Virus record (IMG/VR): IMGVR_UViG_2511231131_000009
Span: 1-48,521 of that record
From: a virus
Taxonomy: Duplodnaviria > Heunggongvirae > Uroviricota > Caudoviricetes
Direction: 5' to 3' (one strand)
Length of the DNA: 48,521 bases
Shown here one piece after another: positions 42,001 to 48,000 of the stretch. The first letter of the stretch is position 1, and every line of letters starts with the position of its first letter. The position numbers were made by a program.

Positions 42001-45000
42001 ACTATCGATCTTGGCAACAACGAATCTCTGGTATGCGGCGTGTTTCCCAACCAAGACGGCACGTTCACCGCGATGACGTATACCAAAAGCAAAACGTTTA
42101 AAACCGAATCTGGCGCGCGTCGCTGGTTAGCAAGAAACTCTGACTAATGAAATCTGGTAATTAAGGAATCCTCCACGGGGGGGAGTGGTGCACACGCGCC
42201 GGACACAAGCAAGCATCCGGCATGCTCTTTAACAATCTGGATATCCATAACAGTAAAAATCTACAGATTGCCGTTCAGTTTTCTGGCCAACTCTTCAAGA
42301 GATGGAGGCGATACGTAATCCGGATTTTTATTCATAAGAAACTGATTTTCACAGTACAGGCACCTGCTTTTATGAAAAAATTCATATTCTCTAACCGGGA
42401 ATGGCTGAAGTATCGATACTATCTTTTGTCCAAAACATTTTGGACAAAGATGCATGATTATGCTGCCGCCGTTCACGGTTACCTCCTTCGAGTACACAAA
42501 AGTTCCCGACTCAAGTTGGCTAAGGATATAACCTTCCGTCTGAGCCTCAAAGTTTTCAAATTCTGCAATTTTAGCTTTGAGAGAAGCATTTATTTCTTGA
42601 TAAGTGCCCACCAGCTCAACGAGAGACACGCATTCGCGCTGAATAGATGCAAGCTTTGAGTTCAGTTCACCAATAGCCGCATTTACTTCAGCTTGAGTTT
42701 TTGCCTCGTTCATTAGTTTTGCAATCTGGGCGGTTTCACGAATAGCCGTCATTGCTGCCGTTAATTCAGCGATCACATTCAATACTCTTATTGTTGTTGG
42801 GGATATCCAGATTAACAAGATCCTTGTTGTTGGGGAATAACGGGGACCACCTCGCCTGACGTGGTAAAAAGCAGGCACACAACACGAAAGCACACGGCGA
42901 GGTTGCTGGTTCATAGATAGCCTATCGTTAAATTTTCGTCGACCGTGCGCTTCCGGTTGTGGCAATCCGCGAAATGGCGCGGCGGTAAGTATGGCTGGGG
43001 TTTCCTCCATTGCTCCAGAAAATGCACCGGGTTGTCAGGTTGACCATACGCTTAAGTGACAACCCCGCTACAACGCCCTCTGTTATCAATTTTCTGGTGA
43101 CATTTGGCGGTATCAGTTTTACTCCGTGACTGCTCTGCCGCCCTTTTTAAAGTGAATTTTGTGATGCGGTGAATGCGGCTAAGCGCACGCGGAACAGTTA
43201 AAACCAAAAACAGTGTTATGGGTGGATTCTCTGTATCCGGCGTTAATTGTTAACTGGTTAACGTCACCTGGAGGCACCAGGCACTGCATCACAAAATTCA
43301 TTGTTGAGGACGCGATAATGGAAACGTTATTACCAAACGTTAATACGTCTGAAGGTTGTTTTGATATTGGTGTTCTGCTCAGTAATAAAGCGTTTACTGA
43401 GGATGCCATTAATATGCGGAAATATGAGCCTTATCTGCTCAATGATAATTCCATACTTTCCCGAATTGCTCTTCTTGAACTTGGTATTTTCGGAGAACAG
43501 CAGTGACCTCAGCATTTGCACTGGTGATGACCGTTTTTCTTATAACGGGTGAGCCGCAGAATGTAATTACCGGAATTTATGACAGTAAGTCATCCTGCAT
43601 TCAGGTAAGGGACGAACAAAAAATCCCCGGTGAATGCCTCCCGTTAAAAAAAGTGTCGCTGAACCTGAATAACGAAATACCGGCTGGATAACCCTCCAGC
43701 CATATTAACGCCATACCAACGGATTAAAAATACCAGCAATGGCAGGAATTTGTTCATCCTTAAAATGGTTATGAGGTTTATCAATGAACGCTGATAAAGA
43801 AGAAATTGCACTATATTACGAAGCCAAAAATGACAAAGTCAGAAAACGCCTTGGGATTAAAGGTGGTTTTTACTGGCGCACAGCAAAAAAATTATCGGTT
43901 GCAATATCACGCGGTGTTGCTGCAATGGACGATGCCGGATTTGACGAAGAGGATTTTAAAAAACCCATCCGCGTCCATTTACCCGTTGTGAATGACCTTC
44001 CACCGGAAGGTGTGTTTGATACTGAATTCTGCAACCGATACGAAAAAGGCGGAGAAGATGGTATCACAATGATACTTATCGCGCCCTCTGTTCCGGACAA
44101 ACCAGCCAGTACTGACAATACCAACGTCAACGGCGAAGACATGGCTAAGATTGAGGAGAATATGCTTCTTCCGGTTTCAGGTCAGATTCTGCCTGTTCGC
44201 TGGCTGGCGCAACACAACAGCGAAAAACCGGTCACGCACGTTTCACTGGACAAACTGCGCGCATTACATAACGCACAGGATGAAAAACTTCCCGCCGTTA
44301 CCGCGCTGGCCATCTCAAATAAAGCAGTGCAACTCGAACCGCTGGAGATTCGGGATTTGTACAAACTGGTGCGAGACACTGACAAAGTTTTCCCCGCCCC
44401 CGTAAATTCGGACCTGGGACTGATGACCTCTTTTATCGAAGCATACCTGGGCGCTGACTACACCGATCGCGGTCTGCTTACAAAAGAGTGGATGAAAGGA
44501 AATAGTGTTTCACGCATCAGCCGCACGCCATCCGGCGCTAACGCTGGCGGCGGCATTCTTACCGATCGCGGCGAAGGTTTTGTCCACGATGATGCGTCAG
44601 TGGCGCGTGACGTAGCCACTGGCGTACTGGCCCGTTCAATGGACGTGGATATTTATAACCTTCATCCCGCACACGCTAAACGCATTGAGGAAATTATCGC
44701 TGAAAATAAACCGCCATTTACTGTGTTTTTCAGCAAATTCATCACCATGCCGGGCCACAAGGATTACTCCCGCGCCATCGTGGTTGCGTCCGTGAAAGAA
44801 GCACCAATTGGTATAGAGGCTACTCCCCACCGTGTCACCGAATACCTGAATAAGGTGCTGACTGAAACCGATCATGCCACCCCTGATCCGGAAATCGTGG
44901 ATATTGCCTGTGGCCGCTCCTCTGCCCCGATGCCGCAGCGTGTAACAAAAGAAGGAAAACAGGATGATGAAGAAAAACCGCAGCCATCTGGCGCAATGGC

Positions 45001-48000
45001 AGATGAACAGGCAACGACTGAAGCAGTGGAACCGGATACAACTGAACATAATCAGGACACGCAGTCGATGGATGCTCAGCCACAGATAAATTCTGTTGAT
45101 GCGAAATATCAGAAACTGCGTGCAGAACTCCATGAAGCCAAGAAAAACATTCCACCCAAAAATCCTGTCGATGCAGATAAATTACTGGCTGCTTCTCGCG
45201 GAGAATTTGTTGAAGGGATTAGCGACCCGAATGATCCAAAATGGGTGAAGGGGATCCAGAGTCGCGATGATGATGACCAGAATCAGGATAAAGCGGAACA
45301 AAACAGCCCAAATGCGTTACAAAACGAGCCAAAAACAAAACAACCAGAACCAGTAGTGCAACAAGAACCAGAAAAAGTTTGCACCACATGTGGTCAGACC
45401 GGTGGCGGCAACTGTCCTGACTGTAGTGCGGTGATGGGGAACGCAACCTACCAGGAAACATTCGATGAAGAGAATCAGGCTGAAGCTCAGAAAAATGATC
45501 CGGAGGAAATGGAAGGCACTGAACATCTGCACAAGGAGAACACTGGCAGCGATCAGTATCACGCCAGCGATAATAAAACTGGCGAAACAGCAAATCCCTT
45601 AATTAAAGTGAACGGTCATCATGAAATCTCATCCACCAGCAGGTTGTGGCACCATCTGATGATTGACCTTGAAGCAATGGGAAAAAATCCTGATGCGCCA
45701 ATAAACGCTATAGCCGGTAAGTTTTTTGATCCGGCAACCGGAGATATGGGGCCAGAATTCAGCAAAACTATCGATCTGGAAACCGCAGGCGGGGTCATCG
45801 ATCGGGACACCATTAAGTGGTGGCTGAAACAGTCACGCGAAGCACAATCCTCCATTCTGACCGATGAAATCCCGTTGGATGATGCACTGCTGCAATTACG
45901 GGAATTTATCGACGAAAACTCCGGTGAATTTTTTGTTCAGGTCTGGGGTAACGGTGCAACTTTCGACAACGTGATTTTACGCCGTTCATATGAACGGCAG
46001 GGGATCCCCTGCCCGTGGCGTTACACCAATGATCGCGATGTAAGAACGATGGTTGCTCTGGGACTGGTGATGGATTTCGACGCAAGAACGACTATTCCAT
46101 TCGAAGGTGAACGCCATAACGCCCTGCACGATGCGCGTTACCAGGCAAAATACGTTTCAGCCATCTGGCAAAAACTGATCCCGAGTCAGGCTGATTTTTA
46201 ATGTTCAACCCGGATCGCCGCTAACGGCATATAGTTAGCGGCGGTTGTGAGATATAGCTATGAGCAGCATATTTTTAACCGAAAATGAATTGCAAACGTT
46301 AACGGGCTGCAAATATGCAAGCCACCAGCGCAACTGGTTAATAAAAAATGGGCTTCCGTTCTATACCAATCGTAGTGGAAAACCGATCGTCAGTCGGGAA
46401 CTGTTTACCTGTATAAAAACTTTACCACCACGTGAGGCTGAACCTGATTTCGGTGCGATCTAATGGGAAGACGAAGGAAAAATCCCGAACACGAAAAATT
46501 ACCGCCAAAGGTATACCCCAATAAATATAGTTATGTATGGAAACCGACATCCAGAGAATCTGTAACCTTAACTGCAATCGAGGATGGTTTAGCCGCATTA
46601 TGGAAAAAGTATGAAGAAACGGTTAACCATCGCGATCGCGCAATGACATTTGGGCGTTTGTGGGAAAAATTTCTCGCCAGCGCCTATTACAGCGAGCTTA
46701 GTCCTAGAACTCAAAAAGATTATCTGCAACATCAAAAAAAGTTGCTGGCCGTATTCGGTAAGGTGCTGGCCGATTCTGTAAAACCAGAGCACATCAGACG
46801 ATACATGGACAAAAGAGGCGAGCAGAGTAAAACGCAGGCAAACCATGAAAAAAGCAGTATGTCGCGCGTTTATAGTTGGGGGTATGAACGAGGGTATGTA
46901 AAGGCTAATCCTTGTGCCGGTGTAAGTAAATTCAAGGCAAAAAACCGAGAGCGCTATGTGACTGACAAAGAATACCAGGCCGTATTAAGCGTGGCTCCTG
47001 TGCCTGTTTTTATCGCGATGGAAATTGCATATCTGTGCGCAGCAAGGATTTCCGATGTGTTATCTCTGAAATGGGAACAGATCGGAAACGATGGGATCTT
47101 TATCCAGCAAGGTAAAACAGGAAAGAAACAGATAAAAGCCTGGAGCCCCCGCCTGCAATCAGTTATAGAAAAAGCCAAACAACTCCCCAAGTCGGCCTAT
47201 GTAATCAGCAATCAGTACGGCAACCGTTACATGTATAAAGGATTTAATGAAATGTGGGTTGAGGCAAGAAATTTAGCAGGACAGATATCTGGGATCGCCA
47301 CCGATTTTACGTTCCATGACCTTAAAGCCAAGGGGATATCAGATTACGAAGGTAGTAGCCGGGATAAACAACTTTTCTCTGGTCACAAGACCGAAGGACA
47401 GGTATTAATCTATGACAGGAAAGTGAAGATCTCACCTACACTGGATGTACCTTTACCCCAGAATATTCCAACAAAATATTCCAAGTAATTCCAAGTGTGA
47501 TTTTTATCACTGACTTGATGGCGTGTAAGTGATTGAATTTTGGCGGAGAGAGGGGGATTTGAACCCCCGGTGGAGTTGCCCCCACTCCGGTTTTCGAGAC
47601 CGGTCCGTTCAGCCGCTCCGGCATCTCTCCGTTCAGATGGTTGCCATGATGCCAGGAAATTTGGCATTTTAACAGTCCCTGTCCGTGCAATTTTGTTCAA
47701 GTGACGAGTTTGCGAGCAAAACGATGATTAAGTGGCCCTGGAAAGTACAAGAATCAGCACATCAAACTGCCCTTCCCTGGCAGGAAGCACTATCGATCCC
47801 CCTTTTAACGTGTCTGACGGAACAGGAACAAAGCAAATTAGTCACTCTTGCCGAACGTTTTTTACAGCAAAAGCGGCTTGTTCCTTTACAGGGCTTTGAA
47901 CTGGATTCATTAAGAAGCTGCCGGATAGCACTTCTATTTTGCCTACCCGTTCTGGAGTTAGGACTGGAATGGCTGGATGGTTTTCATGAAGTCTTAATTT

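Follow-up and report, generated by a model that had tools for sequence, protein, structure and literature searches.

The prophage exonuclease gene and its parts

The stretch of DNA analysed here (the window; 48,521 nucleotides, IMG/VR virus record IMGVR_UViG_2511231131_000009, positions 1 to 48,521) is a lambdoid prophage adjoining tRNA-Ser (CGA) and mtfA. Between positions 43000 and 47700 its sequence matches E. coli O55:H7 CB9615, as well as several further O55:H7 strains, at 100% identity. We studied the gene at 43784-46201, which closes the early-left (dicB-type) operon ahead of xis and int. Its 805-amino-acid product joins the N-terminal and central part of a RecE exonuclease to a C-terminal DEDDh domain of the family that contains DexA of phage T4. 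The gene and its parts are as follows.

43784 to 46201, plus strand: chimeric exonuclease gene, 805 amino acids (open reading frame [ORF] list; Pfam, PHROG and NCBIfam matches; RefSeq "exonuclease," WP_000990641.1, in CB9615)
43784 to 45603, plus strand: RecE-homologous N-terminal and central part, amino acids 1 to 607 (comparison with RecE)
43949 to 44344, plus strand: PF06630 Exonuc_VIII match, amino acids 56 to 187 (Pfam E = 1.8e-24, 87 bits against a cut-off of 25)
45380 to 45424, plus strand: CxxC...CxxC motif in the linker, amino acids 533 to 547 (sequence; alignment with RecE)
45633 to 45640, minus strand: Chi site (GCTGGTGG) 30 bp past the swap junction, in Ser-Ser-Thr-Ser codons (sequence)
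45650 to 46168, plus strand: DEDDh domain with predicted 3'-5' exonuclease activity, amino acids 623 to 795 (PF16473, Rv2179c/DexA family)

Homology to RecE ends at a single base

A preliminary description of this prophage, made from its sequence, had proposed that the N-terminal and central parts of the protein match RecE of the Rac prophage. BLASTP confirmed this: amino acids 58 to 607 align with amino acids 50 to 591 of K-12 (Rac) RecE at 73% identity, and no alignment extends past amino acid 607 (RecE amino acid 591). The roughly 550 related residues include the PF06630 match and the CxxC...CxxC motif, which K-12 RecE shares; the motif could be a metal-binding zinc knuckle. The NCBIfam equivalog model for RecE, NF007259, also covers only amino acids 1 to 607 (positions 1 to 602 of the 877 in the model) and scores 1036 bits, under its curated cut-off of 1269. 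When the C-terminus of RecE was used as a tblastn query, nothing was found in the window. A structural model of amino acids 1 to 400 has three confident domains (1-100, 124-237, and 240-380), and from about amino acid 380 to the junction the protein is acidic in composition, the model covering this stretch up to amino acid 400. We found no structural homologue of the N-terminal scaffold. Two of three large protein searches gave nearly only near-identical E. coli or Klebsiella clusters, so the N-terminal model rests on a shallow alignment.

At the nucleotide level, homology to four RecE-type genes ends at one shared base, window position 45603 (amino acid 607, RecE amino acid 591). This base sits just ahead of the structured nuclease domain of RecE (roughly amino acids 606 to 866); the genetically defined domain is amino acids 564 to 866 (review, PMC11611040). 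In two of the loci compared below, L012 and L013, the central region is 99% identical to that of the 805-amino-acid protein but is followed by the RecE nuclease domain and RecT. A near-identical center with another C-terminus indicates that exchange at the junction is recent and recurrent. These data support the domain swap that had been suggested, in which the DEDDh domain replaces the 5'-3' PD-(D/E)XK nuclease of RecE at a domain boundary.

The C-terminus is a DEDDh domain related to T4 DexA

The preliminary description also reported DnaQ-like motifs in the place of the RecE nuclease. Domain annotation of the C-terminus agrees with this and found no canonical RecE nuclease fold there: the match to PF16473 has an E value of 1e-60, scores 204.8 bits against a gathering score of 27, and covers the profile from 1 to 177 of 177. 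The catalytic set of D628, E630, D728, H778, and D783 (DxE, D, and Hx4D) is complete and is invariant across a 40-sequence alignment, the last motif, HNALHDA, beginning at amino acid 778. An AlphaFold2 model of amino acids 601 to 805, with a predicted local distance difference test score of 85.5, has the RNase H-like DEDD fold. Foldseek placed T4 DexA first among PDB entries (8KEN and 8KEL, E = 1e-12, template modeling score about 0.7), followed by RNase T and oligoribonuclease (Orn), and DexA is the sole PDB sequence match of the exonuclease. Residues D7, E9, D119, and H186 of DexA map to D628, E630, D728, and H778.

T4 DexA is a 3'-5' DNA exonuclease (PMC12153337). Its E. coli homologue EcD (HAK9828821.1; "HREX") cuts only DNA with 5-hydroxymethylcytosine (5hmC) and protects against T4 even at leaky expression (PMC12153337). 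The C-terminal domain here belongs to the same Pfam family as DexA (PDB 8KEL, 8KEN) and EcD and has the same predicted fold, at about 22 to 24% identity; those two proteins are stand-alone, of roughly 190 to 227 amino acids, whereas here the domain is the C-terminal part of an 805-amino-acid protein. The family is large, with 10,742 representative clusters at E <= 0.001, and among the best 150 clusters listed the majority are stand-alone proteins of about 180 to 200 amino acids. A 188-amino-acid stand-alone relative lies in a Klebsiella quasipneumoniae prophage (L093:6001-6567), in the same slot directly before xis/int and downstream of yfdP- and yfdQ-like genes, with no RecE-like region close by. 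We also considered K-12 exoD of the DLP12 prophage as a remnant of this exonuclease's family and rejected it, since it is unrelated to the 805-amino-acid protein.

The PF16473 family also raises the question of whether the substrate is RNA. Its founder, Rv2179c of Mycobacterium tuberculosis, which we compared through the Pfam match only, is a stand-alone exoribonuclease; the family is named for it, and NCBI labels many members "3'-5' exoribonuclease." The protein might then trim the 3' ends of phage or host RNA, for example in the processing or turnover of early-left transcripts like the small RNA DicF, which is encoded 640 bp upstream of the exonuclease gene, or it might counter RNA phages in the manner of the ISG20-like TONDO nucleases. 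RNase T and oligoribonuclease come next after DexA in the structural comparison, and prophage DEDDh nucleases with auxiliary domains do defend against RNA phages (PMC13344964). However, the TONDO proteins belong to another, ISG20-like subfamily and are under 500 amino acids (preprint PMC13344964), so that the parallel is one of analogy only. The best match among solved structures, by both structure and sequence, is a DNA exonuclease, the slot that the gene fills is one for DNA recombination genes, and the partner domain comes from a DNA nuclease. We therefore regard an RNA substrate as very unlikely.

DEDDh fusions occur without an annealase

According to the preliminary description, no recT-like gene follows the exonuclease gene, and xis and int come immediately after it. 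The RefSeq annotation, a PHROG scan, and tblastn of the window all bear this out. No annealase is named in the RefSeq annotation of the prophage or lies between cI and int, and the PHROG scan of ten unassigned early ORFs yielded none. Searches of the 48.5-kb window by tblastn with RecT (two types), Bet, Erf, and Sak4-like queries produced no match; these searches did not extend to the remainder of the host genome. Gam and Abc2 also had no match in the window, and no single-stranded DNA-binding protein (SSB) or anti-RecBCD gene is named in the RefSeq annotation. The position of the gene in the early-left operon, shortly before xis/int, is shared with Rac recE, but the Rac gene encodes the 5'-3' PD-(D/E)XK domain in the place of the 3'-5' DEDDh domain, and recT, ralR, and rcbA do not follow here.

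We then compared 84 loci: 80 IMG/VR loci with a close relative (82 to 100% identity) of amino acids 120 to 400, the window, and three phage loci. They fall into the following arrangements.

Fusion to the DEDDh domain, 34 loci: no RecT (either type), Bet, Erf, Sak4-like protein, or Gam in any
Fusion to the RecE nuclease domain, 16 loci: RecT in 16 of 16
Fusion of 1023 to 1048 amino acids to a distant PDDEXK domain (PF12684), 17 loci: a 350-amino-acid RecT-family gene (PF03837) in 17 of 17
ORF ending without a nuclease domain (646 amino acids if intact), 12 loci: Gam and an AAA_24/Sak4-like gene (9), Gam with Bet and Exo (2), or Gam only (1)
Cut by contig ends, 5 loci: neighbors not assessable

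An annealase-family neighbor thus accompanies none of the 34 DEDDh fusions and all 33 of the PD-(D/E)XK-type fusions. As this comparison makes clear, the N-terminal region of RecE forms a module in its own right, with no fewer than five gene arrangements. The proteins that consist of this region only, among them many database entries, carry the misleading names "RecE family exodeoxyribonuclease" or "exodeoxyribonuclease VIII" (L048:6638-8578, L043:6638-8257, and P0270, of 646 amino acids); they have no nuclease domain, and their neighbors are Gam and an AAA_24/Sak4-like gene.

Chi sites and the Tritos class of phages

The window is rich in Chi. It contains nine copies of GCTGGTGG where 1.9 +/- 1.3 are expected, an about 5-fold over-representation that none of 100 shuffles reached.

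Start positions of the nine Chi sites: 25920, 31314, 33908, 33960, 34424, 34550, 42608, 45633, and 46322

All nine lie within 25920-46329, in the lysis-to-int half of the prophage. Seven of the nine are on the "top" strand (terminase at left), all at most about 23 kb from the lysis/cos end. The DEDDh-type loci that we fetched hold 86 Chi sites, all on this same top strand, at 0.275 per kb and with at least one in every locus; in annealase-bearing loci the density is 0.013 to 0.043 per kb, and most such loci have no Chi. The site just past the swap junction is at the same position in 28 of 28 DEDDh loci that hold the domain, including divergent Tritos and L020, and codon conservation is a possible cause.

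These properties recall a published group of phages. Zheng, Casjens, Davidson, Amundsen, and Smith (Genome Res 2025, PMC12315714) state that 22% of lambdoid phages lack a Rec module, are rich in Chi, and are aided by RecBCD. Their Table 1 describes a "Tritos" class that has a nuclease, no annealase, SSB, or RecBCD inhibitor, and many top-strand Chi sites, and the paper also notes nuclease genes of the DnaQ type close to int and "RecE-2" proteins without a nuclease domain. Tritos-type phages are thought to rely on host RecBCD (PMC12315714). The window corresponds to this class in having a nuclease, in lacking an annealase, an SSB, and a RecBCD inhibitor, and in top-strand Chi sites clustered toward the right end, so that both the missing functions and the oriented Chi richness of the Tritos/LLS type are found in it. 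The paper classifies phages and, in the text examined, neither describes a fusion of the RecE N-terminal region to a DEDDh domain nor tests the nuclease. Tritos itself encodes an 823-amino-acid homologue. Its last approximately 520 residues are 58 to 59% identical to the 805-amino-acid protein, and its first approximately 260 residues differ and are of the K-12 ydfE type. Since Tritos carries this homologue and the class is a published one, the missing annealase is a property of the class, not a sign of decay.

The fusion is conserved and widespread

An intact ORF of 800 to 823 amino acids is present in 24 of 28 related loci. Over 225 pairs, the median ratio of nonsynonymous to synonymous substitution rates (dN/dS) of the domain is 0.12, which indicates purifying selection. 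Of ten long representative proteins carrying the domain that were tested, nine had the architecture of PF06630 plus PF16473, and this architecture is kept across genera at 50 to 58% domain identity: versions of 712 amino acids are common in Klebsiella, and related forms occur in Citrobacter, Enterobacter, and Leclercia. Isolated phages with the fusion include Tritos (823 amino acids) and the vB_EcoS-689R5 group. DNA for the domain is present in 4060 of 5426 complete E. coli genomes (about 75%), with up to seven copies per genome, in pathogenic strains. The exonuclease gene is among the commonest prophage genes of E. coli. Its database names vary: "exodeoxyribonuclease VIII," "RecE family exodeoxyribonuclease," "exonuclease," and "3'-5' exoribonuclease."

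Damaged copies also exist. The gene is frameshifted or truncated in PPompW phages, and 4 of the 28 loci have no full-length ORF. In K-12, the ydfE pseudogene (MG1655, L090:3079-3999) is 99% identical to the first 256 amino acids of the 823-amino-acid Tritos-type exonuclease, so K-12 once had the gene. There it was destroyed by IS2, whereas the gene in the window is intact and has a RecE-type rather than a ydfE-type N-terminus. Such copies would suit a decaying remnant: illegitimate recombination in a cryptic prophage would have stripped a RecET module of recT and of its nuclease domain, leaving a nonfunctional chimeric ORF. Against this stand the dN/dS of 0.12, the invariant catalytic residues, the persistence of the architecture across genera at that degree of divergence, and its presence in phages that form plaques as well as in three of every four E. 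coli genomes. We give decay almost no credence. The preliminary description had left two possibilities for the recombination module, that it is incomplete or that it works differently. An incomplete module does not agree with a fusion that is conserved across genera, is under purifying selection, is carried by isolated phages, and fits the published class of Chi-rich phages without annealase; that the module works differently is plausible.

Proposed role of the exonuclease

What we consider the probable explanation is that this is a two-part protein, a RecE N-terminal region with a DexA-family DEDDh exonuclease, of a Tritos-type prophage that relies on host RecBCD and RecA, and that it trims 3' ends. 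The DEDDh domain would act at free 3'-OH ends, taking off nucleotides through two-metal-ion hydrolysis. By analogy with DexA, the substrate would be DNA 3' ends rather than RNA, and the N-terminal region may target or assemble the nuclease. Host RecBCD and RecA would supply the recombination needed for replication and packaging, and the most likely role of the protein would be to trim the 3' ends of linear DNA, whether of the phage or foreign, in the course of lytic growth. With a 3'-5' polarity, opposite to that of RecE, the fusion could not supply an annealase with the 3' single-stranded tails it requires, and this fits the absence of an annealase gene.

Several points weigh against this explanation. 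The Pfam and NCBI names say exoribonuclease, and from sequence one cannot tell a DNA from an RNA substrate. According to PMC12315714, 3'-5' exonucleases usually inhibit RecA-dependent recombination, so a positive role is not obvious. The richness in Chi could come from long residence in the chromosome, though isolated phages are also Chi-rich. An annealase from elsewhere in the host genome could act in trans. Finally, the loci compared are related prophages, and the counts are therefore not independent events.

A more ambitious proposal builds on the same data. The N-terminal region of RecE may be portable and bring different enzymes to one target, probably DNA ends; in Chi-rich phages without annealase, the DEDDh fusion would then assist RecBCD-Chi recombination by the host, for instance by trimming 3' tails for RecBCD loading, and the junction Chi would be part of the design. 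We consider this proposal as a whole decidedly unlikely.

The gene may instead protect the lysogen. Its closest characterized relatives are T4 DexA and E. coli EcD (PMC12153337), it lies in a prophage beside dicB, and stand-alone versions of the domain fill the same slot before xis/int in other prophages. An antiphage nuclease of the HREX/EcD type would spare unmodified host DNA and degrade incoming phage DNA with modified cytosine. However, the gene is at the end of a repressor-controlled early-left operon. A scan for promoters and terminators around it returned matches no more frequent than in shuffles, and thus no promoter signal above chance, a result that is silent on expression in the lysogen. 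The residues do not point to EcD either. The alanine that distinguishes EcD, at the position of DexA D90, is an aspartate here (D700), and among the homologues an alanine was found there only in some stand-alone proteins, such as P0113 and P0119. DexA W152 and D169, which have been proposed to recognize 5hmC, align by MAFFT with T748 and D764, with a tryptophan (W745) three residues before T748, the alignment of this loop being uncertain. With D700 kept and threonine in the place of W152, there is no EcD signature, and substrate preference is not readable from the sequence. EcD is moreover a stand-alone protein, as judged from residue numbering and not from its sequence, and protection of the lysogen leaves the RecE N-terminal region and the link to Chi unexplained. 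Defense by modification-dependent cleavage is therefore unlikely.

The families of both halves, the database annotation of the gene, and the phage class (published in 2025) are already known, and overall this is an ordinary, uncharacterized prophage gene. A literature search by Pfam names found no paper describing a fusion of the RecE N-terminal region to a DEDDh domain. Three observations do not appear in the literature examined: that the N-terminal region of RecE is modular in five ways, that the DEDDh version and annealases strictly exclude each other, and that the junction Chi is kept in 28 of 28 copies. The label of RecE-type recombinase is wrong for this gene in its partner and, as predicted, in its polarity. 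The strict link between the DEDDh version, the lack of an annealase, and oriented Chi sites offers a handle on how lambdoid phages without annealase treat DNA ends. Full-length RecE improves linear-linear recombineering, and the modularity of the N-terminal region bears on what that region does in recombineering.

Prophage setting

The features that surround the exonuclease gene are the following.

43092 to 43143, plus strand: DicF small RNA, upstream in the exonuclease operon (Rfam RF00039, 77 bits)
43318 to 43506, plus strand: dicB, immediately upstream of the exonuclease gene (RefSeq annotation)
43503 to 43691, plus strand: ydfD-like DUF1482 gene, immediately upstream of the exonuclease gene (RefSeq annotation)
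46260 to 46463, plus strand: DUF4224 gene in the excisionase position, directly downstream of the exonuclease gene (ORF list, RefSeq)
46463 to 47488, plus strand: tyrosine integrase gene, next after the DUF4224 gene (ORF list, RefSeq)
47541 to 47630, minus strand: tRNA-Ser (CGA) at the integrase end of the prophage, with host mtfA beyond (ARAGORN, Rfam, annotation)

The presence of DicF, which is missing from the RefSeq feature table for this stretch, identifies the operon as one of the Qin/dicB type. The local order of DicF, dicB, ydfD-like gene, exonuclease gene, gene in the xis position, and int is likewise of the Qin type; K-12 Qin (dicA-ydfABC-dicF-dicB-ydfD-ydfE-intQ) has DicF, dicB, ydfD-like gene, large exonuclease, and int in the same order. 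There is no gene between the exonuclease gene and the DUF4224/integrase pair. We take tRNA-Ser (CGA) to be the integration site, judging by its position. The coordinates of NC_013941.1 are one higher than those of the window upstream of about 41.9 kb and equal to them downstream, so a 1-bp insertion or deletion relative to the window lies between about 41802 and 41995.

Other genes of the prophage can be noted. A 171-amino-acid ORF at 42261-42776 on the minus strand (PHROG 1244, of unknown function) has CPKC...CLYC motifs and contains the Chi site at 42608; it is antisense within the early-left operon, with a ydfA-like gene on one side and DicF on the other. A stand-alone SIR2-family protein (37790-38749, minus strand) is encoded beside hokD (37263-37418, minus strand), between the replication genes and a nin-like region, and this locus could be antiphage or addiction cargo. 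At 35363-37097 on the minus strand, two genes overlap: one encodes a 367-amino-acid helix-turn-helix protein whose match to a metalloprotease-like group is weak (PHROG 87), and the other a 216-amino-acid protein (PHROG 5786). The tail region carries virulence-type cargo, given here in record coordinates that may be one base above those of the window: an EspF-repeat effector gene (about 282-1008, plus strand), a gene for a Lom/Ail outer-membrane protein (about 2783-3383, minus strand), and the Cu/Zn superoxide dismutase gene sodC (about 7060-7588, plus strand).

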